DNA of 64,000 bases from Thermoanaerobaculia bacterium (GCA_036558325.1 DATBFU010000067.1:5536-69535), one strand, 5' to 3'; shown: positions 8,244 to 49,412, counted from the stretch's first letter. Made by a program: numbers and translations. Notes: generated by a model not told the origin, from the letters alone.

Positions 8244-8256
8244 TCCGCTCCTCCTT

Positions 8257-11200: not shown

Positions 11201-11328
11201 TCGGTGGTGCGCGAGATCTTGAACTCGCGCATCTCGGCTTGCGCGTCGGAAACGTCGAAGCCGAGCGCGATCGACGTTCCGATGCCGGTTGCCTTGAGGA
11301 ATCCGCGTCGCGAGATCTGCACCTTCAT
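8257..11328 (-). CDS. fdnG: formate dehydrogenase-N alpha subunit, selenocysteine-containing (in-frame TGA at 10747-10749), Tat signal
   Basis: Two adjacent track ORFs (10747..11328 and 8257..10734) are in the same frame, separated only by TGA. The flanking peptide DSQARV-U-HGPTVASL matches E. coli FdnG ...ARVUHGPTVASL. The N-terminus SRRGFLKATG is a Tat motif. Confidence 0.9.
10700..10746 (-). promoter_or_regulatory. putative SECIS hairpin immediately downstream of the Sec UGA of fdnG
   Basis: mRNA ACGGUGGCC-AGUUU-GGCCGCCACGU can fold as a bulged stem-loop about 10 nt after the UGA, as bacterial SECIS elements require. Confidence 0.4.
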
Positions 11329-11379
11329 GCGACCCCTCCTGCAAAGCGCAAACTATTCCAGACCCTTCGGTCTAGGTTG

Positions 11380-19644: not shown

Positions 19645-21048
19645 CTAGTCGGACGCCTCCAAGGCCTTCACGACCGTGACGGTGCAATCGGCCTGGGCGA
19701 CGATCTGAGAGGAAACGCTGCCGAGGTATCGCCGCAGCGTGGAGCTGCCGCGCGAACCGACGAGAATCTGCGCGGCACGGTTTGCGCTGGCGAAGTCGAG
19801 GATCGCGGCGCCGGGGTCCGGCGCGCCGAGCACGTGATAGGTCGTGCGACTGGTGGGCAGTCCCAGCGGGCGGGCCCAGTGCTCGAGCTCGACGAGCCGC
19901 CGGACGTGCAGATTTCGACCCTCCTTGTCCACCAGGGCGTCCATTCCGATCCGGTGGGTCTTGAGGACGGTCACGCAAGCGAGGCGCGCTCCGGGCTGGA
20001 GGATCCGGCCGATCGCTGCGCGCATGGCGGCGTCGAGAGGTTCCGAAGGGTGGGCGAGGTCGATCGCCGCCACCACGAGCGGCTCCCGGTTCTTCCCGCG
20101 CACCCTGGCAGCGGGGACCCGGGCCTCTCCGAGGGATCGCGCGTATCGCGCCACGACGGTCCAGAACGGGTCACGGACTTCGCGCCGTGCGCGGTCGGTC
20201 AGGGCAACCCGCCTGGGATCCCGAAGCGCCGCCGCCACCTCCTCCGCGCTCGCATAGCGGGCGGAGGGATCGACCTCGAGGCAGCGGAGGACAATCTCCT
20301 GCAGCCAGGGAGGATAGTCCGGGTCGGCCATTCGGGGGGGCGAGGGGTCACGATACAGGCGACGGCGGAGGCCGCGCACGCTGGCCGGGTTGCCGAACGG
20401 ACGCCGTCCGGTCGAAAGCAGATACAGCACGACGCCGAGCGCGAAGAGGTCGCTTCGGGGATCGTCCCGAGTCCGGAGGATCTGCTCGGGCGAGATGTAG
20501 GGTCCGGTGCCGATTGGGGTCTTGAGCTCCTCCGCGAGCAGATCCGGGAGGTCCCGATGCCGGGAGGTGCCGAAATCGATCAGGACGGCCTCTCCGGTCT
20601 CGCGAAAGAGCACGTTGCTCGGTTTGACGTCCAGGTGGATGACGTGCTGCCGGTGAATGTCGGCGAGCGCCGTGGCCACGCGCGCGCCGATGGCCGCGAC
20701 GTCGCCGGACGGCAGAGGCGCATCGGTCAGGCGCGCGCGGAGCGAGGGAAGCGAAAGGTACTCCATGACGATGTACGGTTCCGTCGAGAGGCCCTGGGAC
20801 GCGACGAACCGGGGAACGTGCACCCCGGTCAGGAGGGGCAGGATCCCGGCCTCGACTTCGAAGCCGACGATCGCAGCCGGATCGTCGAACTCCCGGAGGA
20901 GGGGAATTTTCATGGCGAGCGGCTTCCCGGGCGCCGACGCCGAGGCGACGCGCCAGATGTTCGACATGCGCCCGCGGTGGAGGATCTCTTCGAGCCGAAA
21001 TCCTCCGACGACCGCCCCCGGTTCGTGATGGCGGCAGTCTCCGGTCAC
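19645..21048 (-). CDS. Hanks-type Ser/Thr protein kinase fused to a C-terminal universal stress protein (UspA) domain
   Basis: HLDVKPSNVLF catalytic loop, DFGTSR, PEQ. C-terminal about 140 aa VVAAIDLAHPSE...ILVGSRGSSTLRRYLGSVSSQIV is a UspA fold. GTG start with GGGAGGAG RBS. Confidence 0.8.
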   Translation of the reverse strand: MTGDCRHHEPGAVVGGFRLEEILHRGRMSNIWRVASASAPGKPLAMKIPLLREFDDPAAIVGFEVEAGILPLLTGVHVPRFVASQGLSTEPYIVMEYLSLPSLRARLTDAPLPSGDVAAIGARVATALADIHRQHVIHLDVKPSNVLFRETGEAVLIDFGTSRHRDLPDLLAEELKTPIGTGPYISPEQILRTRDDPRSDLFALGVVLYLLSTGRRPFGNPASVRGLRRRLYRDPSPPRMADPDYPPWLQEIVLRCLEVDPSARYASAEEVAAALRDPRRVALTDRARREVRDPFWTVVARYARSLGEARVPAARVRGKNREPLVVAAIDLAHPSEPLDAAMRAAIGRILQPGARLACVTVLKTHRIGMDALVDKEGRNLHVRRLVELEHWARPLGLPTSRTTYHVLGAPDPGAAILDFASANRAAQILVGSRGSSTLRRYLGSVSSQIVAQADCTVTVVKALEASD

Positions 21049-23152: not shown

Positions 23153-24322
23153 ATGGCCCCGGTGACCAATCTCGAGTCGGTCTTCGACGCGCGGACGCTC
23201 GCGCGCCTGGATCGCTGGCGGAAAGCGCGTGCTCTCTTCCTCCGACCCGACACCACGACGGCCGAACGCGCCCTCTCGGAGATCCTGGAGAAACGGTGGC
23301 TGCGCGCGCAGGTCTACGGGCGGGCGCGTCGCGTGCTGGCCGAGCGGATCCCGTTCCTGCTGCCGGAGCTGCTGCAGAAGCTCGGACCGGCGGCGGAGCA
23401 GGTGCGCGTCTCGCCCGAGGACATGAACCAGACCAAATGGGACGCGATCGGGAACCTTATGCCCCTGACGCTCGCCTGCCGGCAGGTGCGCGCGCTGTGG
23501 CTCCTCGACGTTCTGCGTTCCGGGAGCATCTACGTCGAGTTCCAGCCGATCTTCGATCTGCGCAGCGGCGAGGCGTTGGGCTACGAGGGCCTTCTGCGCG
23601 GCCAGTCTCCCGACGGGGCACGGCACCTCGCGGCCGAAATCTTTCCCGCGGCGGTCGTGCTCGGCATCGAGGCGCCGTTCGAGAGGCTTTCCTGGATCTC
23701 CGTTCTCGACGCGGCCAAGCGGCTGCCGTCGGAGTCCATGGTCTTCCTGAACGTGAACCCGGAGCTGCTGGCCGCGGCGGATTCCTCGCTCGCGCGCCTC
23801 GGAGAGGAGGCGGAGCGGATGGAGTTCCCGTACGCCCGCCTCGCTCTCGATCTCGTCGAGATCGAGCGGATGCAGTCGCTGGATCTCCTGCAGAAGGCGC
23901 TCGCCGTTCCGCACGACCTGGGCGTCGCGATCGCGCTCGACGACGTGACGTCGGGCTACGGGACCCTCAAGTACTGCTCCGGCCTCGCCCCGCGTTGGAT
24001 CAAGGTGGACAGCGAGATCACGCGCAGCATCCGCGGAGACGCCCAGCGCCGGGCGATCCTGCAGCTGCTCGCCCAGGTCGCGCGGGAGGCGCGCGTGGGT
24101 CTCATCGCGGAAGGCATCGAGTTCGCCGACGATCTCGACGTCTGCCTCGAGGAGGGCGTCTTCGCGGCGCAGGGCTACTTCCTGGCGCGCCCCGGTGCCG
24201 AGCCGCCCGAGCCGACCGAGGAATTTCGGTCGTGGCTCGAGGCGCGCCGCGGGACGGCGGGGGAGCCGCGGCCGGCCGCGCCGGTCGAGACGGCGGACGC
24301 CGAGCCCGCCGACGACCTGTAG
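23153..24322 (+). CDS. EAL-domain protein (c-di-GMP phosphodiesterase-like, atypical EFQ in place of EAL)
   Basis: YVEFQPIFDL...ALDDVTSGYGTLKY...WIKVDSEITRSI...EGIEFADDLDVCLEEGVFAAQGYFLARP matches the EAL fold. Confidence 0.75.
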   Translation: MAPVTNLESVFDARTLARLDRWRKARALFLRPDTTTAERALSEILEKRWLRAQVYGRARRVLAERIPFLLPELLQKLGPAAEQVRVSPEDMNQTKWDAIGNLMPLTLACRQVRALWLLDVLRSGSIYVEFQPIFDLRSGEALGYEGLLRGQSPDGARHLAAEIFPAAVVLGIEAPFERLSWISVLDAAKRLPSESMVFLNVNPELLAAADSSLARLGEEAERMEFPYARLALDLVEIERMQSLDLLQKALAVPHDLGVAIALDDVTSGYGTLKYCSGLAPRWIKVDSEITRSIRGDAQRRAILQLLAQVAREARVGLIAEGIEFADDLDVCLEEGVFAAQGYFLARPGAEPPEPTEEFRSWLEARRGTAGEPRPAAPVETADAEPADDL

Positions 24323-29847: not shown

Positions 29848-30192
29848 TCAGGGAGGGGAGATCGCCCGCCAGTCGGCCGCGCCGGCCATCCGTTCGTGCA
29901 TCTGGGACGCCCCGGCGAGGATTCCCCGCAGCTCGGCGGTCAGGAGCTTTTCGAGGTCCGGGAGGTTCGCCGGATCGGCGAGCGGAACCGAGCACTCGAT
30001 GGCCGTCTGGCCGAGCGAGGCGAAGAAGGGCGACGGCCGGCGGGTCCAGTCGGACTCGTTGCGCCGGTGCTTGGTCATCAGGAAGGCGGCGAGTCGGCGC
30101 TCATCCCAGGGCTCGATGAGCGTCCAGCGAAAGTTCGCCCGGGCGCCCTTGTGCTGCACTTCGGGCTTCTCCGCGGCCAGAGCGATCGACAT
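29848..30192 (-). CDS. hypothetical protein
   Basis: 114-aa ORF upstream of the DGQHR gene. AT-rich divergent promoter region upstream (30193-30235). No recognisable domain. Confidence 0.4.
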   Translation of the reverse strand: MSIALAAEKPEVQHKGARANFRWTLIEPWDERRLAAFLMTKHRRNESDWTRRPSPFFASLGQTAIECSVPLADPANLPDLEKLLTAELRGILAGASQMHERMAGAADWRAISPP

Positions 30193-31010: not shown

Positions 31011-31724
31011 ATGGCGGGCGGGCGCTCGTCGAAACGGCTGCGCGACGCGATCGATCGCGTCCTGATCCACGACATCAAGAACATGGGTTTCCGGCTGGAG
31101 ATGCTCCGGTCCAACCTGGACGAGCACTACGGCGAGCCCGAGTTCAAGCGCTCGGTCCAGGAGCTTCTGGCCGCGACCGTCGACCGGCTCGACAAGATCG
31201 TCGGACGCTTCGCGGCGCACGAGGACGCGGTCCTCATCAAGGTCGCGCTCGATCTGAACGCCCTGGTCCGCGACGTGGGCGACGCTCCGACGCGGCGCGG
31301 AGCGCGGCCGAGGCGCGCGGGAGGAGGCGAGCTCGGCCGGCTGTCTCTCGCCCTCGGAGAGGTGCCGCCGGTCTGGGGCGACCCGTACTATCTGCGCGAC
31401 GCGCTCGCGAGCCTCGTCGACAACGCGCTCGAGGCCGCCGGGCCGCCGGGCAAGGTTCTCGTGCGCAGCTTCGCGACCGGCAAAGGAGCCCGGCGGCGCG
31501 CCAACATCGAGATCATCGACAACGGCCCGGGCATGTCGGCCGACTTCGTCCGCGACCGCCTCTTCCAGCCGTTCCAGACGACCAAATCGGACGGCGTCGG
31601 CCTCGGCCTCTTCACGGCCAACCAGATCGTCCGCCACCACGGCGGGACCGTCCGTTTGAAGTCGCGCCCGGGGGAAGGCACGCTCGTCCGCCTGTCCTTT
31701 CCGGCGGTCCGGGCCGAGCCGTGA
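31011..31724 (+). CDS. sensor histidine kinase, cytoplasmic, no sensory or TM domain (HisKA+HATPase only)
   Basis: IHDIKN H-box. DNALEAA...IEIIDNGPGM...GVGLGLF are the N, G1 and G2 boxes. 237 aa. Confidence 0.8.
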   Translation: MAGGRSSKRLRDAIDRVLIHDIKNMGFRLEMLRSNLDEHYGEPEFKRSVQELLAATVDRLDKIVGRFAAHEDAVLIKVALDLNALVRDVGDAPTRRGARPRRAGGGELGRLSLALGEVPPVWGDPYYLRDALASLVDNALEAAGPPGKVLVRSFATGKGARRRANIEIIDNGPGMSADFVRDRLFQPFQTTKSDGVGLGLFTANQIVRHHGGTVRLKSRPGEGTLVRLSFPAVRAEP

Positions 31725-33097
31725 CGGCCGCCGAGGAACTGCCGCGGATCCTGATCGTCGAGGACGATCCCTTTCTCCTGGATCAGCTCCGTTTCGCGCT
31801 CTCGGGCCGGTTCGCCGTCACGGGAGCGCGCGACGCGACCGAGGGACGGGCGCATCTGGCGGGCGAAGCCGACGTCTATCTCTTCGACCTTCGCCTGCCG
31901 CCGTCCCACACCGTCGAAGAAGGCTTCGGCCTCCTTCGGGAGGTCCGGCGGCGCGACCCGGACGCCACGGTAGTCGTGATGTCCGGAGAGACCGAGCGGC
32001 GCGAGGCCCTGCGTGCGGTCGAGCTCGGCGCCTTCGACTTCTTTCGCAAGCCGGTGGACGCGGCCGAGCTGCTCGTCATCCTGACGCGCGCCCTCGAGCG
32101 CCGCCGTCTCCTCGCCGAGAATCGCACCCTGCGTCTGGAGACGAAGGCGCCCGGCCCCTTCGACCGGCTGGTGGGGGAGAGCTCCGTCATGCGCCGGCTC
32201 CTCGACGAGATCCGGCGGCTGGCGCCTTCCGACGCCACGGTGCTCGTCGTCGGCGAGAGCGGCACCGGCAAGGAGCTCGTCGCGCACGCGATCCACGACG
32301 GAAGCCCGCGCGCGAAACGTCCGTTCGTGGCCGTCAACGCCGCGGCGCTGCCGGAGGCGCTCGCCGAATCCGAGCTCTTCGGGCACGAGAAGGGAGCGTT
32401 CACGGGGGCCGTGTCGTCGCGCCCCGGCCGCTTCGAGCTCGCGGCCGGCGGAACGCTTTTCCTCGACGAGGTCGGGACGCTCTCGCCGGCGATCCAGGCG
32501 AAGCTCCTGCGCGCCATCGAGTCCCGTCAGATCGAGCGGGTCGGCGGACAGCGCACCATTCCGGTGGATCTGCGGCTCGTCTCGGCGACCAACGAAGACC
32601 TGGACGGCGCCGTCGCCCGCGGGAGCTTCCGCGAGGATCTCTATTACCGGATCAATACCGTGCCGATCCGAATTCCGCCGCTCCGCGAGCGGCTGGAGGA
32701 TCTGGAACCCCTGTCGGCGCACTTCCTCGCGAAGTACGGCGAGCGGCACCGGCGGCCCGGCCGGCGTCTCGGTTCGGGCGTCCTCGAGCGCCTGCGCCAG
32801 CATCCCTGGCGCGGCAACGTGCGGGAGCTCGAGCACGTGATCGAGATGCTGGTGCTCTTCTCCGACCAGGAGGAGATCGGTCCGGAGGACCTGCCGCGCG
32901 TGCTGCGCGACCGGGCGGGCGCGGCGTCGGGCCGACCAGCCGGCGGCCTGCCGTTCGCCAGGGCCGTCGAGGAGTTCGAGAAGAGCCTTCTCGCCCAGGC
33001 GATCGCCGACGCGGGAGGGGTCAAGGCCGAGGCCGCCCGAAGGCTGGGACTCGACGGCAACCAGATCAAGTACCTCTGCAGGAAATACGGCCTCTAG
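31721..33097 (+). CDS. sigma-54-dependent Fis-family response regulator (NtrC-type: REC + AAA+ + HTH)
   Basis: GTG overlaps the HK stop. ILIVEDD...D(54) REC, GESGTGKE Walker A, GAFTGA sigma-54 contact motif, C-terminal Fis HTH. Confidence 0.9.
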   Translation: MTAAEELPRILIVEDDPFLLDQLRFALSGRFAVTGARDATEGRAHLAGEADVYLFDLRLPPSHTVEEGFGLLREVRRRDPDATVVVMSGETERREALRAVELGAFDFFRKPVDAAELLVILTRALERRRLLAENRTLRLETKAPGPFDRLVGESSVMRRLLDEIRRLAPSDATVLVVGESGTGKELVAHAIHDGSPRAKRPFVAVNAAALPEALAESELFGHEKGAFTGAVSSRPGRFELAAGGTLFLDEVGTLSPAIQAKLLRAIESRQIERVGGQRTIPVDLRLVSATNEDLDGAVARGSFREDLYYRINTVPIRIPPLRERLEDLEPLSAHFLAKYGERHRRPGRRLGSGVLERLRQHPWRGNVRELEHVIEMLVLFSDQEEIGPEDLPRVLRDRAGAASGRPAGGLPFARAVEEFEKSLLAQAIADAGGVKAEAARRLGLDGNQIKYLCRKYGL

Positions 33098-33109
33098 CCG
33101 GGCGCCGGG

Positions 33110-33135
33110 GTTGAAGAATTCAACCGCCGGTTGAA
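33110..33135 (+). promoter_or_regulatory. putative enhancer (UAS) for the NtrC-type activator: GTTGAA-N3-TTCAAC inverted repeat plus a second GTTGAA
   Basis: gGTTGAAgaaTTCAACcgccgGTTGAAaaatc lies about 120 bp upstream of the sigma-54 promoter. An AT-rich bendable spacer (33140-33215) lies between. Confidence 0.35.
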
Positions 33136-33228: not shown

Positions 33229-33245
33229 TTGGTCCCAACCTTGCG
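33229..33245 (+). promoter_or_regulatory. sigma-54 (RpoN) promoter, -24 GG / -12 GC
   Basis: TTGGTCCCAACCTTGCG fits TGGYRYR-N4-TTGCW with exact GG-N10-GC spacing. It lies 33 nt upstream of the AAGGAGGG RBS and the ATG at 33278. Confidence 0.55.
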
Positions 33246-33277: not shown

Positions 33278-33805
33278 ATGGCGAACGAAGTGAGAATCAA
33301 GCTGACGGACGAGCAGAAGGCGAAGATCAAGGAAGCCACGGGCAAGGACATGCCGGAGATCCGGGTCGGCAGCCTCGGCGACAACCCCGCCCTCTCGGCG
33401 AAGACGGTCGCCCCGCACGCCTCGGCGCGCAACATCCACGCCGCCCGTAACGTCCAGGCGGCCCGTAACGTCCAGGCGGCCCGTAACGTCCAGGCGGCCC
33501 GCAACGTCCAGGCGGCCCGCAACGTCCAGGCGGCCCGAAACGTCCAGGCGGCGCGCAACGTCCAGGCCGCCCGCAACGTCGCGGCGGCGAAAAGCATCTC
33601 GGCAGCCAAGAACATCGCGGCAGCCAAGAACATCGCGGCGGCCAAGAACATCTCCGCGGCCAAGAACATCACGGCCGCCAAGACGGTCTCCCCGCGCAAC
33701 ATGGCCCGCAACCTGTCGGCCCGCAACGCGACGCGCAATCTCTCGGCGCGCAACGCGAGCCGGAATCTGTCCTCCCGCAACTCGACGCGCGGCACGACCA
33801 AGTAA
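33278..33805 (+). CDS. repeat protein of unknown function: about 45-aa N-terminal region followed by about 14 tandem hexapeptide repeats ([RK]N[IV]xAA) and 9-mer RNxxRNLSA repeats rich in N-x-S/T
   Basis: Strong RBS and ATG. 18-bp perfect and near-perfect DNA tandem repeats from about 33443. Sigma-54 promoter upstream, rho-independent terminator downstream. No homolog recognised. Confidence 0.7.
   Translation: MANEVRIKLTDEQKAKIKEATGKDMPEIRVGSLGDNPALSAKTVAPHASARNIHAARNVQAARNVQAARNVQAARNVQAARNVQAARNVQAARNVQAARNVAAAKSISAAKNIAAAKNIAAAKNISAAKNITAAKTVSPRNMARNLSARNATRNLSARNASRNLSSRNSTRGTTK
33443..33790 (+). repeat. in-frame tandem repeat tract (14 x 18 bp units GCCCGYAACGTCCAGGCG / GCCAAGAACATCGCGGCR, then 27-bp units)
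   Basis: The first three units are identical; later units drift. Entirely coding within 33278..33805. Confidence 0.85.
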
Positions 33806-33827
33806 CCTCGCGCCACCGGATCTTCGA

Positions 33828-33858
33828 GCGCCCCGCCTCGGCGGGGCGCTTTCTTTTT
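33828..33858 (+). terminator. rho-independent terminator (GCGCCCCGCC-tcg-GCGGGGCGC + TTTCTTTTT)
   Basis: Perfect 9-10 bp GC stem followed by a U-tract 22 nt after the repeat-gene stop. The stop codon of the convergent gene lies within the T-tract. Confidence 0.65.
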
Positions 33859-36080
33859 CACCAGAGGACGGTCTGGAGCCAGCGCTTCAGGACCCGGAAC
33901 GTGCTTCCGAGGACCGAGGCGCGGGGCCCGGAGATCTTGGCGAGCCCCGTCATTCCGGGCCGGAGCGAGCGGTCCGCGTTGTCGAACTCCGCCCGGGCGA
34001 CGAATCGGTCGGGACGAGCCGGCGGAGCGGACGGGTCGGCGGTGGACGAGGGCGTCGCGGGATGCTCGAGCGTCGCCGCCGAGACCTCGACGATCCGTCC
34101 ATGGGCGGGCCGAAGCGGCCGGCCCGGCAGCATGGCGGAGACCTCCTCGCCGACCTTCACGTCGTCGAGACGGCGTTCCGAGAAATCCAGGTCGGCGCGG
34201 AGCTTCCGCAGGTCGCCCACCTCGGCGAGCATCGTTCCGGCCAGGACGTGACGGCCGCTCCAGTCGGCGGTGCGCGCCGTCAGCACGGTCCCGGCGATCG
34301 GGCTGCGGACCACGAGCCTTTCCTGGCGGGCCCGATCGCTCGAGAGCTCCGATTCGACCGAAGCTCCCCGGCGCTCCGCCGCATACGCCAGCGCCGGATC
34401 GCTTTCGCCGCGCGCACGGTTCGCCTCCTTCTCGAGGTACCCGCGCTCGGCCGAGAGCTCCCGTCCGCGCGAAGCGAGGGCCGGGCTCGCGAGCCGAAAG
34501 ATGGGCTGGCCGGCCGCGACGACGTCGCCTTCGTTCGCCAGGACCTCGGCCACGACGGCGTTCTCCGGAGCTTCGAGGCGCGCCTCGGTCGAGGCCCGCA
34601 GCCGGATGTCGGTGCGGACCTTGCGATGCGTCCAGGGCACGAGGAGAACGACCGCGAGAAGAGCGACGCCCGCGAGCAGAGGCTTCCGGCTGCGGCTGGA
34701 CATGATGAGGTCCTTCTTGTCGAGATAGAAGAGACGGCCCGTCCGCGTCACGAGCCGGACGCGTTTGCGGAAGAGCCGCAGCAGCGTCAGGACCAGAAGC
34801 AGGACGGCGAGATTCGGGAAGTATTTCGAGTAGAAGTTGTAAAAGAGTCCGCCGATGAACGCCATCACGACGCCGATGTAGGCGAGCGCGAGCGGAGCGT
34901 AGATCCAGTAGATGCGCCGCTTGCGCCGCGAGGCCTCGGGGATCTCGACGGGCAGTCGCAGCACTTTCGCCTGGAAAAGGGCGCCGAGATATCGGAACGA
35001 CTCCTCCCGAAGCTCGGGGATCTCGAGGACGCTCGAGAGCGCGTAGTAGCCGTCGATCTTGATGAGCGGGTTGATGTTGAAGAAGACGGTCGACGCCCCC
35101 GTAAAGAGCATCGTCTTGTAGGCGAACTCGTTCAGGAAGCTGTCCGGATACGACACGACCCAGAGGAACGTCGCGGCGAAACAGATGAAACCTTCGATGT
35201 AGATGCCCGCGGTCGTGACCCAGAGCCGGTGCCATTTGCTCTCGAAGAGAAGCGAATCCGTCGTGTCGCAGTAGAAGGCCGGCGTGAAGTACAGGAGCGC
35301 GATGCCGATGTCGTGCACCTCGCCCCCGTAGAACTTCGTCGTGTAGGCGTGGGCGAACTCGTGGATGCATCCGATGATCGAGAGCAGGAGGAAGAACTGG
35401 ATCGCATCGAGCAGCGGCTTCTTCAGAAAGGCGTAAAGCTCGAGCGTGCCGGACCAGATCGGCTGCCAGTGCTGGACGAAGATGCCGACCGTCCAGAGCA
35501 CCGCGAGGCACCAGACGAGGACGACCGGAGGCGTCCAGATCCAGCGCACGTATTTCGCCGTGCGCACGAGGAATCGCTCGGGATCGAGCACGTGGAAAGG
35601 AATGAAGAAGATGTTGCGGCCCTCGGCCTTCTCCTCCGCGGCGCGCTGGCGCGCGGTCTTGGCCCGGGCGAGCAGCTGGAGGTTGCGTTCGGCCACGCCC
35701 TGCTCGATGAGGTCGACCTTCCGGAGCATTTCCTCGAAGTCGAGGACGAGCGTCGCCGAGATCTCGTCCCGCGGGAACTCGCGCCGGTAGTCCTCGAGGA
35801 TCTCCGTTCGCGTCCGTGTGCCGTCGAAGAGCTGGATGAGGCCCCACTCGGCGTCCGAGAAGTTGTAGTACTTGATCGTCTCGGGGTTCTTCACCACCCA
35901 CGTGACTTCGCCCATCTGGACGACGCGGCGGATGACGAGGTCGCCTCGGAGGGCGGGCCGGTCGCCGGCGGCGCCGTGCTTTTCCGCGAGCGCGGCGGCC
36001 GCGTCCCCCGTGCGGGCGGCGAGGAGGCCCCCGGGCCGCGCGCTCAGGGCAGGAGCGGCCAGACCTTTCTCCAGAGCCAT
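33858..36080 (-). CDS. tri-domain fusion: PqqD-like RiPP recognition element + S2P/M50 intramembrane zinc metalloprotease + HlyD-like periplasmic adaptor domain
   Basis: N-terminal PALRGDLVIRRV...YNFSDAEWGLIQLFDGTRTRTEILEDY is PqqD-like. HEFAH zinc motif in a TM helix and NPLIKIDGYY (S2P NPDG-type motif). C-terminal TM then the lipoyl/beta-barrel region (VVAEVLANEGDVVAAGQPIFRLAS...VVRSPIAGTVL). No stop between domains. ATG 36078-36080 overlaps the upstream gene by 37 nt; alternative ATG 35915. Confidence 0.7.
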   Translation of the reverse strand: MALEKGLAAPALSARPGGLLAARTGDAAAALAEKHGAAGDRPALRGDLVIRRVVQMGEVTWVVKNPETIKYYNFSDAEWGLIQLFDGTRTRTEILEDYRREFPRDEISATLVLDFEEMLRKVDLIEQGVAERNLQLLARAKTARQRAAEEKAEGRNIFFIPFHVLDPERFLVRTAKYVRWIWTPPVVLVWCLAVLWTVGIFVQHWQPIWSGTLELYAFLKKPLLDAIQFFLLLSIIGCIHEFAHAYTTKFYGGEVHDIGIALLYFTPAFYCDTTDSLLFESKWHRLWVTTAGIYIEGFICFAATFLWVVSYPDSFLNEFAYKTMLFTGASTVFFNINPLIKIDGYYALSSVLEIPELREESFRYLGALFQAKVLRLPVEIPEASRRKRRIYWIYAPLALAYIGVVMAFIGGLFYNFYSKYFPNLAVLLLVLTLLRLFRKRVRLVTRTGRLFYLDKKDLIMSSRSRKPLLAGVALLAVVLLVPWTHRKVRTDIRLRASTEARLEAPENAVVAEVLANEGDVVAAGQPIFRLASPALASRGRELSAERGYLEKEANRARGESDPALAYAAERRGASVESELSSDRARQERLVVRSPIAGTVLTARTADWSGRHVLAGTMLAEVGDLRKLRADLDFSERRLDDVKVGEEVSAMLPGRPLRPAHGRIVEVSAATLEHPATPSSTADPSAPPARPDRFVARAEFDNADRSLRPGMTGLAKISGPRASVLGSTFRVLKRWLQTVLW

Positions 36081-38464
36081 CGGGCGGGCTTGCGCAGGAG
36101 CAGCGTCGCGATGCTTCGCCGGCCGGCCCAGACCTTTCCCGTGCCGACCATTCCCGTCTTGAGCGCTCCGCCCGGGTTCTCGGCGCGGACCTCGGCGATG
36201 AGGAACCGGTTGTCGCCCTCCTCCCGGACGCGGGCGCCGAGGCGCATCACCGAGCCCGGGAACGTCCGCGTCGGATACGGGTTGATCTTCAGGGCGACCC
36301 GCTGCCCGACGGCGACGAGCGCCGCGTCCGCCTCGGGCACGGCGACCTCGGCCGTGACGGTGCCCGCGTCGGCGACGACGGCAAGCTCGTCGCCGCGATG
36401 AAAGAACTGGCCGACCCGCTCCTCGATCCGCGGCGTCACGATGACGCCGGAGGCCGGCGCGGTCAGGCGCGTTCGCGCGAGCTCTTCCTTCGCGAGGGCG
36501 ACGCGCGCGTCGAGCTCGTCGCGCCGCGACTGCGCCTCGAACATGCGGGCGGAATCGCCCGCCTCCCGGTAGCGCGCGACGTCGCTCGAAGCGATCGCAA
36601 GGTCCGCCTGCGCGTCGGCCAGGCGCGCCGCGTACGCCTCGTCCTTGAGCGTCGCGATGACCTCGCCCGCGGCGACGTGGTCGCCCTCGTGCTTCTGCAC
36701 CGAAGCGAGGACGCCGTCCACGCCGGCCGTCACCGAGCCGCGCGAGGCCGGGCGGACGCGGGCCGGCCCGGCGATGCGCAGCCGCCACGGAACGACACAG
36801 AGGAGCAGGGCGGCCGCGAGGCCCCCGATCCAGACCGCGCGGCGGCGCTTCGGAGCCTCGCCGAGCGCACGGCGTTTGGCCGCGAGCGGTTTCCAGAAGC
36901 CCACGAGCGGCACCTGGCGGTAGAGCTGCGCGTTGCGGACGGCCACGGTCGCCTGGTTGACGAGGATCTGGAGCAGGTCGCGCGTCTCGCCGTCGAAGAC
37001 GAGGGGATCCCTGCTCTCGAACGCGAGCACGCCGAGCTTGCCCTCCTCGTCGGCGAGAAGGGCGGCATGAAACGAGCGCAGGCCCGTCTCCTCGAAGACG
37101 GCGCGGAACTTCTCTTCGGTCTCCGGACGGTCCGCCGTCAGCGCGCCGTCGGGCGTCTGGGTCACCGAGACGTTTTGGCCGGAGAAGAAGACCCACTGGA
37201 GCAGCTCCTCGAGCCGCTTGACCTCGGGCTTCGAGCGGTCGACCTCGTTGGCGCCGGAGATCGCGCCGAGCCGCATCTTTCCCTTCTCGAGGATACCGAT
37301 CGCGCAGCGGTCGTACGTGATGAGCGCCGCCGTCGCGTTGACGATCGTCTGCATGACCTTGTCGAGATCGAGGGTCGCCGTGATCTCCCGGCTCACGGCG
37401 AGAAGGGCGTCGAGCTCTTCAACCTTTTTCTCCGCCTCGTGCTGGCGCGCGGTGCGCAGCGCGCGGACGGCCTGCCGCGCGACGTCCTGGAGCAGCTCCT
37501 CGTCCTCGGGCGCGAACTCGGGATGTCGCCCGCGCTTGTTCGCGAGCACGAGCGCTCCGACCGAAGCCTGCTCCTCGATGAGCGGCACGGCCAGGACGGA
37601 GCGGATCGGGTAGCCGTCGACCTCGGCGGCCAGAGGATCGTCGTCCGGGATCCGATTCCTCCGCAGCGCGCTCTGTTCGGCCAGGACGTCTCCGGCGATC
37701 GACGCGCCGACGGCTTCGGGCGCGGGCGAGATCTCGTAGTTGTCGTTGATCGCCGTCGCGGCGAGGGTCGCGTCGTCGCCCGAGAGGAGCCAGAGCGATC
37801 CGGTCTCAGCCGTCGCGAAGTCGACCGCCTTGCGGACGATCAGCGCCGCGAGCTCCTGCGGCACGATCGTGCCCCCGAAGGCCTTCGAGAGGTCGTAGAG
37901 GTTCGTGAGCCGCTCGATGGCGCGGAGCATCCCGACGGTCTTGCGCTCGGCGCGCAGGGCCCGGCCGAGCGCCGGCGCCGCGTCTTCGAGAAAGCCCGAG
38001 AGCCGCGCGAGCGCCGCATCGGGGTCCTGGCGCCGCCGGAAGAGGAGCACGAGGAGCGCGACGACGAAGCCCTCGGCTTCGAGGGGTAGAGCCACCGCGA
38101 TCTCGGTCCCCGCGGGCATCCCGCGGAGGAACGGGTCGTCGGCCGCGGCGAGCTCCGAGCGCTCGAGCGCGATCGCATGTCGGTCCCGGACGAGCTCCCA
38201 GGCCACCCCCGAATCCCGCGGCACCGAGCGTCGGCGGAAGCCGTCGGTGCCCTCGCCCGCGTTGCCGATGCACAGAAAGAGGGGATGAACGGTGTCCGGC
38301 GCCCAGAGGAGCGCGCCGTCGGCCTGGGCCATCTCGGCGCTCCACCGGGCCGCCCAGCCGGAGGTCTGAGAGAGGTTCTCGCAGAGCGCGAGCTCCGCGA
38401 GCGCCGAGACGGGGCGTTCCCCGTCGTGCCCCTCCGGGCCCCCTCCCTCCGGCTCGTCGGGCAT
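36044..38464 (-). CDS. three N-terminal GAF domains + TM + HlyD-family adaptor domain protein
   Basis: AGGAGA RBS. Three GAF-like blocks in residues 1-520, one TM (AVWIGGLAAALLLCVVPW), then the HlyD lipoyl/beta-barrel region (GVDGVLASVQKHEGDHVAAGEVIATLKDEAY...RLTAPASGVIVTP). Confidence 0.75.
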   Translation of the reverse strand: MPDEPEGGGPEGHDGERPVSALAELALCENLSQTSGWAARWSAEMAQADGALLWAPDTVHPLFLCIGNAGEGTDGFRRRSVPRDSGVAWELVRDRHAIALERSELAAADDPFLRGMPAGTEIAVALPLEAEGFVVALLVLLFRRRQDPDAALARLSGFLEDAAPALGRALRAERKTVGMLRAIERLTNLYDLSKAFGGTIVPQELAALIVRKAVDFATAETGSLWLLSGDDATLAATAINDNYEISPAPEAVGASIAGDVLAEQSALRRNRIPDDDPLAAEVDGYPIRSVLAVPLIEEQASVGALVLANKRGRHPEFAPEDEELLQDVARQAVRALRTARQHEAEKKVEELDALLAVSREITATLDLDKVMQTIVNATAALITYDRCAIGILEKGKMRLGAISGANEVDRSKPEVKRLEELLQWVFFSGQNVSVTQTPDGALTADRPETEEKFRAVFEETGLRSFHAALLADEEGKLGVLAFESRDPLVFDGETRDLLQILVNQATVAVRNAQLYRQVPLVGFWKPLAAKRRALGEAPKRRRAVWIGGLAAALLLCVVPWRLRIAGPARVRPASRGSVTAGVDGVLASVQKHEGDHVAAGEVIATLKDEAYAARLADAQADLAIASSDVARYREAGDSARMFEAQSRRDELDARVALAKEELARTRLTAPASGVIVTPRIEERVGQFFHRGDELAVVADAGTVTAEVAVPEADAALVAVGQRVALKINPYPTRTFPGSVMRLGARVREEGDNRFLIAEVRAENPGGALKTGMVGTGKVWAGRRSIATLLLRKPARWLWRKVWPLLP

Positions 38465-38483
38465 GCGATCTCCTGATTTCTTC

Positions 38484-38819
38484 CTAGAAGCTCAGGACGG
38501 CTTTCTCCAGATCGTCATGAATCTCGAAGACCGAATCGAGCTTGGTCATCTCGAGGAGCTTGCGAACCTGGGGGCCGGCGTTCACGAGCTTCGTCTGTCC
38601 GCCTTCCTTCTGCGAGATGGTCAGCGCGCGCACGAGGGCGCCGAGCCCCGAGCTGTCGAGGAAACCGACCCGGCCGAGATCCACGAGCAGGTGGATGCGG
38701 CCGTCTTCCAGGAGATGGGTGACCGTTCTCTTGAAGTTGGACTCGGCTTCGCCGATGACCAGATCGCCGACGACGGTCAGGACCGTGACCCGCCCGTCCT
38801 CTCTCGTCGTGAGCTCCAT
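38484..38819 (-). CDS. STAS-domain anti-sigma factor antagonist (SpoIIAA-like)
   Basis: 111 aa. GFLDSSGLGALV with the conserved phosphorylatable Ser. 19 nt upstream of the GAF-HlyD gene. Confidence 0.85.
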   Translation of the reverse strand: MELTTREDGRVTVLTVVGDLVIGEAESNFKRTVTHLLEDGRIHLLVDLGRVGFLDSSGLGALVRALTISQKEGGQTKLVNAGPQVRKLLEMTKLDSVFEIHDDLEKAVLSF

Positions 38820-38904
38820 GAAAGCGGCGACATTATGTCGGAAACGCCCTTCTCGTCCAAGGCCCGCCGGACGGGCGCCGGAACTATGATCCGCCCGTGC
38901 GGCG

Positions 38905-39120
38905 ATGAAGTCGGCGCGGACCGCCGATCACGAGGTGGCGGAGGTCGTGCTGCGGCAGGAGCCCGCGGTCGGCGGCCGTGTCACGGTGCGCGGCCCCGTC
39001 GGCGCGGAGGGGGAGTGGATCGTGATCGACCGGCGGCCCGACCCGCACGGATGGCGCGTCACGGCGGTGCGTTGTCTCGCGGCCTGCCGGGAGCATTCTG
39101 GAGCCGACGACCGGACTTGA
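38905..39120 (+). CDS. questionable small ORF (71 aa) overlapping the 3' end of the tRNA
   Basis: ATG ORF in the 280-bp gap between the STAS gene and the tRNA. Overlaps the tRNA by 22 nt. No domain recognised. Confidence 0.15.
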   Translation: MKSARTADHEVAEVVLRQEPAVGGRVTVRGPVGAEGEWIVIDRRPDPHGWRVTAVRCLAACREHSGADDRT

Positions 39121-39174
39121 ACCGGTGACCTGCGGTTTACGAAACCGCTGCTCTACCGACTGAGCTACGTCGGC
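39099..39174 (-). tRNA. tRNA-Thr (anticodon CGU)
   Basis: Cloverleaf by hand. Acceptor GCCGACG/CGTCGGC, D-arm GCTC-AGTCGGTA-GAGC, anticodon arm GCGGT-TTCGTAA-ACCGC, T-arm ACCGG-TTCAAGT-CCGGT, encoded CCA. 76 nt. Confidence 0.9.
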
Positions 39175-39259
39175 CCGCGACGAGTCGCGAAACGGTGAGC
39201 GGAAGCCGGGGATCTTACGGAAACCGGACGCTTCCGTCAACGCGCCGTGCGCGCCCGGT

Positions 39260-43136: not shown

Positions 43137-44249
43137 ATGCTTAGCCTTGAGGTCCGTAAGAGAACGGGCGGCGCGGAAGTCCACCGCGTCAACTCGCCGG
43201 CCCTGACCGTCGGCGCGTCTTCGGGCAACGAGGTCGTCGTGCGCGCGCGCGGCGTCGCGGGCAGGCACTTCCGCATCCTGGAGCGCGACGGCCGCTATCA
43301 CCTCGATCTCTACAAAGGCGTCGACGCCGTGAGCGTCAACGGCCGCGAGTTCACCGGCGGTCCGATCGCGGTCGGCGACCGCATCACGATCGGGGAAGCG
43401 ACGCTGACGGTGCTCGGGGGCCGCGCCGGGCTGCGCACGGCGGTCCTGCCCGAGCCCGCGCGTCCGGAGCCGGTGCGCTTCGAGCCGCAGGTGGCCCCGG
43501 GAACTCTTCTGCAGGTCACCACGGGTCCGATGACCGAGGTGGAGTACCGCACGCTGCGGCTCTCGACCTACGCCCTCTGCCGTTCGAGCCGCTCGCCGGA
43601 GGACTTCGCCGCGCGCCTCGTGGATCTGCTCGACCGCGAGCTGCCGCCGTCCGAGTGGGCCGTGGGTCAGTGGACGCCGGGCGGCGGTTTCCGGCCGTGG
43701 TCCTCGACGTTCCGTGAAGCGCCCGCCTTGCCGCAGAAACTCCTCGCCGACGCCCGCGAGGGAGAGCGCCTCGCGCGCGTCGACACGGTGACCGGGATGT
43801 TCAGCTTCCTGACGGAGCCCGATGTGGAGCCGGGCGACCCGGCGGCGGCGATCTTCGTCCGCGAGGATCCGCGACTGGCCGCCCGCGCGCTGCTCTTCCT
43901 CGAGGAAGTCGTGCAGCTCGCGGGTCTCGTCCTGCGCAAAGCCGGCGGCGCCCTCGAAGAGGAAGAGGATGTTCTCGTCGCGGAGCCGGCCGTCTCGACC
44001 GCGGAGCCCGCGGCTCCGCCATCCGGCAGCGAGATGGAGGCGACGCTCCGACGCACCGACGACCTGAAGAAGATCATCGAGTCCGTCGAGCGAGAGGTCA
44101 TCGACCGCACGATGCGCCGCGTCGAGGGCAATCAGAGCCGTGGCGCGCAGAACCTCAACATCTCGCGCGGCTCGCTCATCGCGAAATTGAAGGATTACGG
44201 GATTCCGGACTACCGATATCTTCGGCGCGAGCGCAACCGCCGGGTGTGA
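43137..44249 (+). CDS. FHA-domain transcriptional regulator with C-terminal Fis-type HTH
   Basis: N-terminal FHA-like VGASSGNEVVVRARGVAGRHFRILERDGRYHLDLYKGVDAVSVNG. C-terminal QSRGAQNLNISRGSLIAKLKDYGI HTH. Confidence 0.7.
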   Translation: MLSLEVRKRTGGAEVHRVNSPALTVGASSGNEVVVRARGVAGRHFRILERDGRYHLDLYKGVDAVSVNGREFTGGPIAVGDRITIGEATLTVLGGRAGLRTAVLPEPARPEPVRFEPQVAPGTLLQVTTGPMTEVEYRTLRLSTYALCRSSRSPEDFAARLVDLLDRELPPSEWAVGQWTPGGGFRPWSSTFREAPALPQKLLADAREGERLARVDTVTGMFSFLTEPDVEPGDPAAAIFVREDPRLAARALLFLEEVVQLAGLVLRKAGGALEEEEDVLVAEPAVSTAEPAAPPSGSEMEATLRRTDDLKKIIESVEREVIDRTMRRVEGNQSRGAQNLNISRGSLIAKLKDYGIPDYRYLRRERNRRV

Positions 44250-44259
44250 GAGCCGGCCG

Positions 44260-45383
44260 CTAGCGTCGCTTCTTTCTTTCTCTCCCTCTCTCCGACTCGC
44301 CGTCCCCCCGCAGCCACCACCAGATCGCGAACGGCGCCGCGAATCGCCCGGCCACCTCGTAGAAGTGAAATCCGCCCGTCCAGAAGTTGCGGGCGGCGCT
44401 CCCGTAATGCGCGGCGCTCCAGGCCCCGAGGGCCGTCGCATAAACCGAGCGCACCTGGAACACGAGCGCGGCGGTCTGGACGGCGAAGAGCGCGAGGCAT
44501 GCGAGGAGGAACGCGGCGACGCGCCTTCCGCCGAGCGGGTGTGGATCGAGCGCGAAGAGGGCGGCGAGCAGAACCAGGTTGAAGTGAAGGTCCGCGGCGG
44601 GCAGACCGGGCCGCGGCGCGCCCGGCGGAAAGTCGGCGCGCTCGACGAGAATCTCTCCGTCCCGGGCCTCCAGGCGGGTGACCGCGGGCCGCTCGGTCGC
44701 GCGGAGGATCGACTCGCCGGCCGCGGCGAGGACGCCCTCGTAGGCGGCGCGGAATCCGAACCAGAACGCCAGGGCGAGGGCGAAGCCGGCGAGCGCCCGC
44801 GCGATCGCGGCGCGCCCGATTCGGGCGCTCGCGGGAGTCGGGGCCAAGGCCGCCGCGCGGCCGGGAGGAGCGGCGTCGTGCGCGCCCGGGCCGCCCACGA
44901 GAGGAAGAGCAGCACGCCGAAGAGAACGACGAAGGACTGCCAGAGAACGGTGTGGGACGCGGAGAAGAGCGCGGGCCGATGGACTCCGATCCAGAAGAGC
45001 GAGACGACGCGGACGAGGTTCACGAGCTCGATCGCGGCGAATCCCAGGAGAAGCCCCGCGAGGCGCCGCTTCCAGGGCGCCGGGAACGCGAACACGGCGG
45101 CGGCGAAGAGGAGCACCGTCTCGAGCCCGTTGCAGCCGTTCTCGATCCGGACGGCGAATGAAGGGGACCGAATCTCGGTTCCGGACACGGCGGCCGGCTC
45201 GCCGAGCGCGTTGAGGATCGCGCCGGAGACGCGCGCGATCGCGGAGGTGAAGGGTACGACGGCCGTCCGGTCCACCGGCCGGACCGCGACGGCGACGTAG
45301 AAGAGGACGAGGAGAGCGCCGAAACGCGCGAGGAAGGCGAGGGACTCCCGCCGGGACGAGGCGGAGTCCGCGGCGCGCTTCAC
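44260..45383 (-). pseudogene. exosortase/archaeosortase-family integral membrane protein, apparently frameshifted near 44880-44900 (or two adjacent membrane-protein genes)
   Basis: Frame A (45383 to about 44880) carries the exosortase-like RIENGCNGLETVLLF Cys motif and the IELVNLVRVV Asn/Arg motif. Frame A then has no stop until 42915. Frame B (GTG 44898 to 44260) encodes a further TM-rich region. GTG 45381-45383 overlaps the thioesterase stop. Confidence 0.4.
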
Positions 45384-48731: not shown

Positions 48732-49412
48732 CTACCGCGCCTCGGCGAGCGAGAGGAGCCGCAGGCAGTCCTCCAGATAGGCTCGGGATGCCTGCGTGAG
48801 CCGGAAAAAGCGGCAACCGAGGCCGGGGTCCGGCTCCGCGCCGAGGCGAACGACGATCGCTTCCGCGACGACGTTGCGGTCCGCGCGCTCGCCCGGGATC
48901 TCGAACGAGACCTCGATGCGGGCGCCGATCGGGAGCGCGATGGGCGTCCGGACGAAGAATCCTCCTCGGGAGAGATCCCGGATCGCGCCGGAGTGCTCGC
49001 TGCCGTCCCGCCAGAAGACCACACGCCACGGGACGGGGGAGCGCTCGTTGGTGCGGGGGAAGAGCTGGAGAAAGCGGCGCAGCGTGCCGAAGAACGCCGT
49101 GTCGTCGAAGGCGCGGGGGAGGATCCCGTCGGCGGCCGCCCGGCGAACCTCCGTGCCCTCCTCGTCGGTGGCGAGGACGACCGGCGTCCGGGCGAATCGG
49201 GGATCCGCCTTGAGCACGCGGCAGACGTCGAGGCCGCTCATGCCCGAGAGCTCGGCGTCCAGGAAGACCAGGTCGGGCCTCTCTTCGCGCGCCACGGTGA
49301 GCGCGTCCGAGCCGCTCGAGGCGGTGAGGACGCGGCACGAGGTGCGCCGGCGAATCGCGTCGGCGACGCTCCGGAAAAGGCCGCTGTCGTCGACGAGGAG
49401 GACCGAATTCAC
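48732..49412 (-). CDS. response-regulator receiver domain fused to a PilZ domain
   Basis: LLVDDS...D(53)...K REC. C-terminal RRFLQLFPRTNERSPV...DLSRGGFFV is a PilZ RxxxR / DxSxGG motif. Confidence 0.75.
   Translation of the reverse strand: MNSVLLVDDSGLFRSVADAIRRRTSCRVLTASSGSDALTVAREERPDLVFLDAELSGMSGLDVCRVLKADPRFARTPVVLATDEEGTEVRRAAADGILPRAFDDTAFFGTLRRFLQLFPRTNERSPVPWRVVFWRDGSEHSGAIRDLSRGGFFVRTPIALPIGARIEVSFEIPGERADRNVVAEAIVVRLGAEPDPGLGCRFFRLTQASRAYLEDCLRLLSLAEAR

Follow-up and report, generated by a model that had tools for sequence, protein, structure and literature searches.

Organization of the STAS and GAF-HlyD genes

In a 64,000-nucleotide stretch of Thermoanaerobaculia DNA (GCA_036558325.1, DATBFU010000067.1:5536-69535), hereafter called the window, we analysed a minus-strand operon in which the gene for a STAS-domain protein of 111 residues, STAS111, is followed by that for a membrane protein combining three GAF domains with an HlyD-type membrane fusion protein (MFP) domain (GAF-HlyD), and by that for a membrane protease homologue ending in a second HlyD domain (M50-HlyD). 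A preliminary description, made from the sequence of the window alone, had placed the STAS gene 19 nt upstream of a membrane protein with three GAF domains and an HlyD adaptor, and both the gene coordinates and the domain searches bear this out. The features of the first two genes and of their promoter, with positions counted from the first letter of the window, are as follows.

38832..38859, minus strand: sigma-70-type promoter of the STAS operon, from a consensus scan; TGGACG (-35-like), 16 nt, CATAAT (-10, 38837-38832)
38828..38840, strandless: palindrome CGACAT-A-ATGTCG overlapping the -10; core GACATTATGTC at 38829-38839
38484..38819, minus strand: STAS111 gene; single-domain STAS, 111 aa, with a predicted phosphorylatable Ser56 in FLDSSGLG
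36044..38464, minus strand: GAF-HlyD gene, 806 aa; three GAF folds, one transmembrane (TM) helix and a putatively periplasmic HlyD/MFP domain
37910..38413, minus strand: GAF-A (aa 18-185), a divergent N-terminal GAF fold found in this family alone
37445..37870, minus strand: GAF-B (aa ~199-340), Pfam GAF/GAF_2 (GAF matches aa 202-336)
36932..37369, minus strand: GAF-C (aa 366-511), membrane-proximal, Pfam GAF_3
36779..36835, minus strand: TM helix of GAF-HlyD (aa 544-562), from a hydropathy scan; preceded by the basic stretch KRRALGEAPKRRR
36110..36736, minus strand: putatively periplasmic HlyD/MFP domain; lipoyl/barrel-sandwich, short hairpin, beta-barrel

The 19-nt spacer between the two genes contains an AGGAG Shine–Dalgarno sequence. 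Spurious and real open reading frames (ORFs) in this high-GC DNA were told apart by their codon-position GC content, and the same genes were called independently on four metagenome contigs. GAF-HlyD is identical to a protein that NCBI lists for a metagenome-assembled genome of a Thermoanaerobaculia bacterium (Acidobacteriota).

STAS111 matches the Pfam STAS family with an E-value of 5e-20 and scores 70.7 bits against TIGR00377 (anti-sigma factor antagonist), above the cut-off of 53.45 bits. Among PDB entries it matches SpoIIAA (1TH8) best, and Ser56 aligns with the SpoIIAA serine that is replaced by Ala in the variant chain of 1TID, and we take this serine to be the phospho-acceptor Ser58. The DSSGLG motif around Ser56 is conserved at a level of at least 95% among 74 orthologues, and a phospho-serine motif that is invariant in this way makes a partner-switching-like input through STAS111 plausible. 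The orthologues are 73–92% identical, which places STAS111 among the best-conserved proteins of the locus.

The N-terminal domain of GAF-HlyD falls below the Pfam threshold (GAF_2, E-value 0.011, model positions 16-135 of 136), but the third GAF domain claimed in the preliminary description is nevertheless real. Alignment of GAF-A with GAF-B by hhalign gave a probability of 82% and an E-value of 1e-5, equal in quality to the match between GAF-B and GAF-C; the AlphaFold2 (AF2) model of GAF-A has a pLDDT of 80.6, and all of its top Foldseek matches in the PDB are GAF domains (3CI6, E-value 2.5e-8, TMt 0.72). Using phmmer, residues 46-321 of GAF-HlyD match the cAMP-binding tandem GAF domains of CyaB2 (1YKD). 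The alignment columns of GAF-B contain an invariant motif, N309-K310-x6-F317-x3-D321-E322 (37499-37540, minus strand), which in our view resembles the NKFDE-type signature. The NKFDE motif is typical of GAF domains that bind cyclic nucleotides.

A single TM helix preceded by a basic stretch suggests, by the positive-inside rule, a cytoplasmic location for the three GAF domains (~540 aa) and a periplasmic one for the HlyD domain. The latter (aa 577-773) matches HlyD_D23 (1e-19), HlyD_3 (2e-20) and the MacA structure 4DK1, and GAF-HlyD therefore shows the lipoyl/barrel-sandwich and beta-barrel architecture of an MFP behind one TM anchor, although its TIGR01730 score of 91.5 bits is slightly below the cut-off of 94.9.

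A locus scan using one genome per species gave 77 loci, every one from Thermoanaerobaculia/Acidobacteriota. The CATAAT -10 element that had been proposed upstream of the STAS gene is well supported by this comparison: in the window it ends 12 nt ahead of the STAS111 ATG, GACATAAT is present in 68 of the 76 orthologous loci, and a -10-like hexamer occurs in 75 of the 76, always 10–14 nt from the STAS ATG. No Shine–Dalgarno sequence was found ahead of STAS111 in any of the 76 loci examined, and this, together with a -10 so near to the ATG, implies a leaderless or near-leaderless STAS111 transcript. The palindrome fared less well. It exists and overlaps the -10, as had been described, but it lies at 38828-38840 rather than at 38835-38848. 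It occurs once in the window against an expected count of 0.03, and its right arm is kept in just three of the 76 loci, the majority of which read GACATAATCCGCCC. We therefore rejected it as a conserved operator; it is lineage-specific, with an operator role unlikely.

Co-occurrence of STAS111 with GAF-A

STAS111 lies directly upstream of GAF-HlyD in all 76 loci that have sequence at this position, and the linkage presumed in the preliminary description is that of a real, conserved pair. The gene order, wherever sequence exists, is STAS, GAF-HlyD and M50-HlyD, with a convergent group encoding a repeat protein, a sigma-54 response regulator, a histidine kinase and a short HlyD protein (HlyD3). 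When GAF-HlyD and M50-HlyD served as protein queries, the matches were filled up by orthologues of at least 57% identity. Conserved order alone is, however, weak evidence, because unrelated flanking genes past HlyD3 (DndB-like, LemA and M48) are equally syntenic, and all of the loci belong to one class. A stronger case for linkage comes from the other side of the operon, where synteny breaks exactly upstream of the STAS gene (SMC/tRNA-Thr are found there in only about 24 loci, 0.2–6 kb away), taken together with the high identity of the STAS111 orthologues.

A tRNA-Thr (CGT) gene at 39099-39174 on the minus strand lies between smc and the STAS operon in the window and explains the short conserved ‘ORF’ matches seen downstream of smc elsewhere. 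Two ORFs in this interval (38884-39240 and 38907-39128) were considered as a protein gene between SMC and STAS and were rejected, since the conserved element is the tRNA and gene callers call nothing else.

The association of STAS111 is more specifically with GAF-A. The STAS gene co-occurs strictly with the extra N-terminal GAF domain (76 of 76 loci), and GAF-A, searched exhaustively against 1.84e9 representatives, matched only 50 clusters. Frameshifted fragments aside, these comprise two architectures, the HlyD type and a second type (cluster P0244) represented by a protein of the locus that we call L075, and STAS111 precedes both; it was never seen apart from a GAF-A-bearing gene in the loci and representatives examined. 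At L075 (chimera coordinates 7997-11410), a STAS111 homologue that is 64% identical over all 111 residues lies directly upstream of a 723-residue protein, of which the first ~360 residues (GAF-A and GAF-B, including the N-K-x6-F-x3-D-E motif) are 51% identical to the window protein, while the remainder consists of SpoIIE/PP2C and HATPase_c_2 domains.

This second architecture can be compared with a canonical locus that is common in the Thermoanaerobaculia, in which one GAF-PP2C-HATPase_c_2 gene is followed by genes for a 94-residue STAS protein and an ECF sigma factor, by further genes and by PrsW. L075 retains the canonical 94-residue STAS and the ECF sigma factor downstream of the chimera, and this 94-residue protein is of a distinct lineage, only 33% identical to STAS111 over 55 residues. 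In L075, STAS111, GAF-A and GAF-B take the place of the single GAF domain of such a canonical gene; the three have thus been transferred together to another output, and the join lies in the helix that follows GAF-B. The GAF-HlyD proteins of Proteobacteria (see below), by contrast, lack GAF-A, and their loci lack the STAS gene. Since both are missing there, STAS111 tracks the GAF-A/GAF-B head rather than the HlyD domain, the M50 protein or the two-component system. A metagenome scan for more chimeras of the L075 type found none, as none of the best 80 loci covers GAF-A.

These comparisons also bear on the view that STAS111 is an ordinary anti-sigma antagonist with partners elsewhere in the genome, its place before GAF-HlyD reflecting inherited order and, at most, co-expression. 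By its hidden Markov model (HMM) score STAS111 belongs fully to the anti-anti-sigma superfamily, and it keeps the phospho-serine; GAF-PP2C-HATPase_c_2 loci with STAS and ECF genes abound in the class, and unrelated flanking genes are syntenic there as well. The canonical loci, however, have a STAS protein of their own that is not STAS111, the latter never strays from a GAF-A-bearing gene, and synteny ends precisely upstream of STAS111, where the conserved promoter sits. We consider this view unlikely.

The M50-HlyD protein and the convergent operon

The remaining genes of the locus comprise the last gene of the minus-strand operon and a convergent plus-strand operon, with the following features.

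33858..36080, minus strand: M50-HlyD gene, 740 aa, encoding a predicted RiPP recognition element (RRE; RiPP, ribosomally synthesized and post-translationally modified peptide), a site-2 protease (S2P)/M50-like domain and an HlyD domain; the gene begins before GAF-HlyD ends, the two overlapping by 37 nt
35706-35948, minus strand: predicted RRE (aa ~45-125); PqqD, E-value 0.017 over the full-length model
34761-35543, minus strand: HExxH intramembrane protease domain (aa ~180-440); HEFAH at 240, NINPLIKIDG at 335
33921-34604, minus strand: HlyD domain (aa 493-720), following a TM helix (aa 467-485)
33826..33851, strandless: bidirectional intrinsic terminator; 11-bp GC stem, T-run on the plus strand, upstream A-run serving the minus strand
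33278..33805, plus strand: leader-repeat protein (putative substrate), 175 aa; ~38-aa leader MANEVRIKLTDEQKAKIKEATGKDMPEIRVGSLGDNPA, then hexapeptide tandem repeats
33230..33244, plus strand: sigma-54 promoter TGG-N8-TTGC of the leader-repeat gene, with a strong Shine–Dalgarno sequence after it
33109..33135, strandless: GGTTGAA / TTCAACC / GGTTGAA half-sites forming an inverted repeat; candidate enhancer (upstream activating sequence) for the sigma-54 activator, seen in the window sequence alone
31721..33097, plus strand: sigma-54-dependent response regulator, PrsR-like; REC-AAA+-HTH_8 by Pfam; TIGR02915, 415 bits against a cut-off of 502.6
31011..31724, plus strand: histidine kinase, 237 aa, HATPase_c; no sensor and no TM segment
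30236..31006, plus strand: HlyD3, short periplasmic MFP, 256 aa; HlyD_D23 4e-23; TIGR01730 151.7 bits, above the cut-off

The minus-strand operon thus has one promoter, one terminator, a 19-nt spacer and a 37-nt overlap. The N-terminal part of M50-HlyD is modelled by AF2 as a beta3-alpha3 fold, and the six best Foldseek matches to this fold in the PDB are lasso-peptide RRE/leader complexes (5V1V and 6JX3; TbiB1) with TMt values of 0.71–0.74, so that the fold searches and Pfam point to an RRE in this protein, an assignment that we believe to be new. The protease part has six hydrophobic segments, and the HExxH and NxxPxxxxDG motifs of S2P enzymes both fall within TM segments. Its family scores are marginal for Peptidase_M50 (26.1 bits against a gathering threshold, GA, of 27.2), 158 bits and under the cut-off for daptide_HExxH, and 4e-11 (E-value) for the YydH/LiaK family.

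The leader-repeat gene is always convergent to the M50-HlyD gene. In the window the repeat units are AARNVQ (seven), AAKNIx (five) and ARNxS..., and Tandem Repeats Finder gives a period of 18 nt and 9.2 copies. Across 58 loci the leader is conserved (consensus M-x-NEVKIKLTDAQKAKIKEATGKDLPEIRVESFGSNPA), whereas the repeats of different species are wholly unlike in sequence and charge and in the length and number of the units, which include GAPRA, AGKSIAGRA, MRAAKS, PRANT, DLSAQ, EEGLR, DDALR and ATRAQ; the proteins range from about 90 to 240 residues. The sigma-54 promoter is present in 57 of the 58 loci, in nearly all of those as TGG-N9-TGC at 43–51 nt before the ATG.

HlyD3 belongs to this convergent operon and not to that of GAF-HlyD. 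A 114-residue ORF without a family match (29848-30192, minus strand) is divergent from it and is found in 56 loci with 62–96% identity. The histidine kinase matches PrsK (TIGR02916) with an E-value of 6e-40, but only at model positions 482-679 of 679 and with 137 bits against a cut-off of 300, and is equivalent to the kinase core of PrsK. The full PrsK architecture (TM, GAF and kinase) is absent, and kinase and regulator both score under the cut-offs of their families.

A kinase of this type might itself be the target of STAS111, which would then act through the sensor-less, PrsK-like GHKL kinase and the sigma-54 activator on the leader-repeat gene, while GAF-HlyD could sequester and release STAS111 and so match the synthesis of the substrate to the state of the machine. 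With neither sensor nor TM segment the kinase would need an accessory input, and all loci keep the two-component system together with the gene that is its sigma-54 target. GHKL kinases are the usual partners of STAS proteins, the canonical case being SpoIIAA with SpoIIAB, and in L075 STAS111 again adjoins a GHKL domain (HATPase_c_2). Against this, the kinase, whose gene lies some 7 kb off in the convergent operon, is of the HisKA rather than the RsbW type, L075 has no such kinase nearby but retains STAS111, and the strict co-occurrence of STAS111 and GAF-A would go unexplained unless GAF-A joined the circuit. Co-variation, calculated from distance matrices as partial values after removal of the flank-gene signal, was 0.25 for STAS with GAF-B, 0.20 with GAF-A, 0.17 with the kinase and about 0 with the flanking genes; the kinase value is near those of the GAF domains, and all are small, carry no significance value and are too weak to discriminate a partner. 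The values for GAF-C, 0.50 with the RRE and 0.59 with the M50 domain of the next protein, are clearer but again weak evidence. Taking these points together, we give regulation through the kinase a low probability, noting that it could be combined with a contact between STAS111 and the GAF head.

Relationship to published modules and partner-switching systems

GAF-HlyD does not stand alone. Kamneva et al. (2015; PMC4452313) identified bioinformatically a conserved module in PVC bacteria (Planctomycetes, Verrucomicrobia), Proteobacteria, Nitrospirae and Chlorobi that consists of a GAF and HlyD protein, a Peptidase_M50-like and HlyD protein, a secondary SecA_DEAD ATPase, an HlyD/biotin_lipoyl protein and sometimes OEP, and proposed that it forms a machine related to type I secretion systems (T1SS), with its role undefined. 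That paper names no STAS protein, no two-component system and no Acidobacteria. The window contains the corresponding GAF-HlyD gene beside an M50-like HlyD gene, with an additional short HlyD protein, and we found no SecA_DEAD, TolC or DUF3467 gene in the window or within ±10 kb in the 77 loci; since some of the published cases have unlinked components (PMC4452313), a SecA_DEAD ATPase may be encoded elsewhere.

Homologues of M50-HlyD with 25–30% identity and E-values down to 2e-43 were found by tblastn against plasmids, in Thalassospira, Pseudosulfitobacter, Methylosinus, Azospirillum and Variovorax. These proteobacterial loci, taken together and not with all parts in each, encode a giant repeat protein, DUF3467 (in some), an HlyD-family protein, a PqqD-M50-HlyD protein, SecA_DEAD, a short MFP and TolC. 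The giant repeat proteins are adhesin-like, with genes of 13–48 kb, lengths of 4,000–16,000 residues and an N-terminal ‘...LEPRxLLSAD’ leader. The HlyD-family proteins are of 476–629 residues, two of the five having a Pfam GAF domain (Pseudosulfitobacter, 620 aa; Methylosinus, 629 aa); the Methylosinus PqqD domain scores above GA, and the short MFPs have HlyD3 as their best match. In two of these loci (L086, 11174-13090, 347 bits; L084, 11026-13050) the SecA_DEAD ATPase is named ‘prepilin peptidase’ in the public records, an apparent mis-annotation; the domain scan was made on L086 only. DUF3467 lies directly upstream of GAF-HlyD in Thalassospira and Methylosinus (L085, 5660-5956; L086, 6696-7016), the position held by STAS in the window operon.

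The two kinds of locus thus share a GAF-TM-HlyD protein with predicted cytoplasmic GAF domains beside a PqqD/RRE-M50-HlyD protein, together with a short MFP and a leader-bearing repeat protein. They differ in that the window has three GAF domains, including GAF-A, instead of one or two, lacks the ATPase, TolC and DUF3467, and adds the STAS gene and the PrsK/PrsR-like sigma-54 two-component system, and in that the putative substrate is a protein of 90–240 residues with hypervariable repeats rather than a giant LEPR-XLL protein. A common ExR-hydrophobic-...-(D/N)-P pattern in the two kinds of leader is an impression from reading the sequences only.

Likenesses to other systems are more partial. 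Like the RRE-dependent leader peptidases of RiPP pathways (TbiB1, YydH/LiaK, daptide HExxH), the locus combines a PqqD-like domain, a membrane HExxH protease and a conserved leader with a variable C-terminal part; unlike them, it has no modifying enzyme among its genes, its protease is fused to an MFP and scores under the family cut-offs, and a long protein with tandem repeats stands in the place of the ‘core’. The window does have a radical-SAM MoaA gene (3005-4027), which is unrelated to the locus. The adaptors of tripartite efflux and T1SS machines (HlyD, MacA, TriAB) share with the present proteins the N-terminal TM anchor, the lipoyl and beta-barrel domains and the presence of several MFPs per system, but here there is no ABC, RND or MFS pump, the sole polytopic domain is the S2P-like protease, and GAF-HlyD carries a 540-residue extension that is probably cytoplasmic. 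An unrelated ABC ATPase is encoded at 15352-16395. In the PDB we found no solved homologue of the machine, the matches being generic ones to MacA and the CyaB2 GAF domains.

With SpoIIAA and RsbV, STAS111 shares the STAS fold, membership of TIGR00377 and the DSSGLG motif, but it has no adjacent SpoIIAB/RsbW kinase, PP2C phosphatase or sigma factor and belongs to a lineage apart from the 94-residue STAS of its own clade. Pfam scans of ~55 ORFs of the window found no HATPase_c_2/RsbW, PP2C or sigma factor gene, and tblastn with the PP2C, RsbW-like and ECF queries from L075 found none within ±10 kb in the 77 loci. The earlier statement that no anti-sigma or sigma gene is adjacent therefore stands, a PP2C and an RsbW-like kinase being linked to STAS111 only in the L075 chimera, and the cognate HATPase_c_2 kinase and PP2C phosphatase of a complete partner-switching module are absent from the window. 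The locus does, however, encode the sensor-less histidine kinase and the sigma-54 activator, and the earlier proposal of control over adaptor assembly rather than over transcription was overstated, although as a whole that interpretation is partly supported.

The absence of these enzymes would suit a different role, in which STAS111 is not phosphorylated but has an accessory function, structural or nucleotide-binding, of the kind that MlaB has for the MlaF ATPase and STAS domains have in SulP/SLC26 transporters; it would take the place of DUF3467 and stabilize or recruit a cytoplasmic part of the machine, for example an unlinked SecA_DEAD ATPase. STAS111 is indeed weakly similar to the MlaB and DauA-STAS HMMs, DUF3467 has the equivalent position in two proteobacterial loci, and the window locus lacks the ATPase that the related modules have. 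However, the MlaB score of 17.8 bits is far below the cut-off of 90, no SecA_DEAD gene was found as a candidate for pairing, and the invariant DSSGLG phospho-acceptor motif is typical of phosphorylated antagonists; we regard such an accessory role as very improbable.

The suggestion that a STAS output other than a sigma factor would be unusual was overstated, as such outputs are already known for SypA/SypE in Vibrio fischeri, BtrU/V/W in the Bordetella type III secretion system and All4160/HenR in the Anabaena Hep layer. These systems have, like the present one, a single-domain STAS protein, but unlike it they have identified kinases or phosphatases. Conserved phospho-serines are present in SypA (S56) and BtrV (S55), while All4160 is described merely as STAS-domain-containing and its kinase is unlinked. 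Such precedents make both an unlinked kinase and a non-sigma output plausible for STAS111. The literature searched contained no described precedent for a STAS protein whose target is a pair of tandem GAF domains heading a membrane protein of the MFP type.

Other features of the window

An Rfam SECIS_3 element at 10694-10752 (minus strand) lies at the junction of the ORFs 10747-11328 and 8257-10698 (Molybdop_Fe4S4 and Molybdopterin), which most likely form one selenocysteine-containing formate dehydrogenase alpha subunit with an in-frame TGA that is read through; the genes on either side are those for FdhE, cytochrome b, FeS and FdhD. Upstream of smc are genes for an FHA and HTH_8 protein (43137-44249, plus strand) and for a membrane protein (44260-45378, minus strand) whose exosortase/XrtH-associated similarity is weak. 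These two genes and the PrsK/PrsR-like two-component system hint at a setting of the exosortase type, although neither gene shares synteny with the module. Other signalling genes encode a Hanks-type Ser/Thr kinase-USP protein (19645-21048), an EAL protein (23153-24322), a REC-PilZ protein (48732-49412) and the c-di-AMP cyclase CdaA (58550-59329).

Proposed mechanism and implications

The reading that we favour, with a likelihood we would place somewhat short of even, is that STAS111 is a phospho-switchable partner of the GAF-A/GAF-B head and gates leader processing and export by an envelope machine. GAF-HlyD, the translationally coupled M50-HlyD protein and HlyD3 would form one envelope complex, in which the repeat protein made under sigma-54 control is recognized by its conserved leader, which the RRE binds and the S2P-like intramembrane HExxH protease cuts off, and the repeat domain is handed outward via the MFP assembly. 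The GAF stack may sense a small ligand from the cytoplasm, possibly a cyclic nucleotide at GAF-B, and the binding of STAS111 to the GAF-A/B head would depend on whether Ser56 is phosphorylated, which RsbW/PP2C-type enzymes from other parts of the genome would control, so that ligand and phospho-state together gate processing and export. We favour a contact with the GAF head mainly because of the domain swap in L075 and the co-occurrence of STAS111 with GAF-A.

Several observations weigh against this reading. The L075 chimera is a singleton lineage, the flanking genes of the single class sampled are as syntenic as the operon itself, and the STAS co-variation does not single out the GAF domains. 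The partner-switching enzymes searched for in the window and in the 77 loci are missing, and no ATPase, ABC/RND pump or TolC was found near the locus, so that export is itself inferred. The leader HMM detected no similarity to LEPR-XLL N-termini (E-value >0.3), and we rejected such a relationship. In the literature searched there is no experimental characterization of the module family and no paper on it later than that of Kamneva et al. (2015).

A broader and rather doubtful possibility is that the locus is a self-contained export-and-signalling system for peptides or proteins, of a kind not characterised before, comprising an ABC-free, RRE-guided S2P/MFP machine that matures and exports the sigma-54-induced protein and a cytoplasmic STAS–tandem-GAF gate, responsive to phosphorylation and ligand, that feeds back on the sensor-less kinase, with STAS and GAF-A/GAF-B as a portable input module. 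If that were so, the exported protein, with its universal leader and species-specific hypervariable repeats, could be a surface or signalling molecule particular to the strain, and L075 would show that the input module can also drive a PP2C phosphatase and kinase.

GAF-HlyD itself and STAS proteins with non-sigma outputs were known. What appears to be new, besides the RRE, is the coupling of STAS and tandem GAF domains on an RRE-S2P-MFP machine and the form that this machine takes in Acidobacteria, where a sigma-54 two-component system accompanies it and the putative substrates are small proteins with a leader and hypervariable repeats. The RRE-S2P-MFP/GAF-MFP machine is widespread, occurring in PVC bacteria, Proteobacteria, Nitrospirae, Chlorobi and now Acidobacteria, and the Thermoanaerobaculia variant is the most tractable, with a small putative substrate in place of a 13–48-kb gene, a clear sigma-54 on-switch and two candidate inputs, GAF and STAS. 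The leader-plus-hypervariable-repeat family is in addition a lead for species-specific secreted molecules or for an export leader tag. If STAS111 does bind the GAF head, a membrane export and processing machine would join the short list of non-sigma targets of partner switching, and a portable input module of STAS and tandem GAF domains would be defined.

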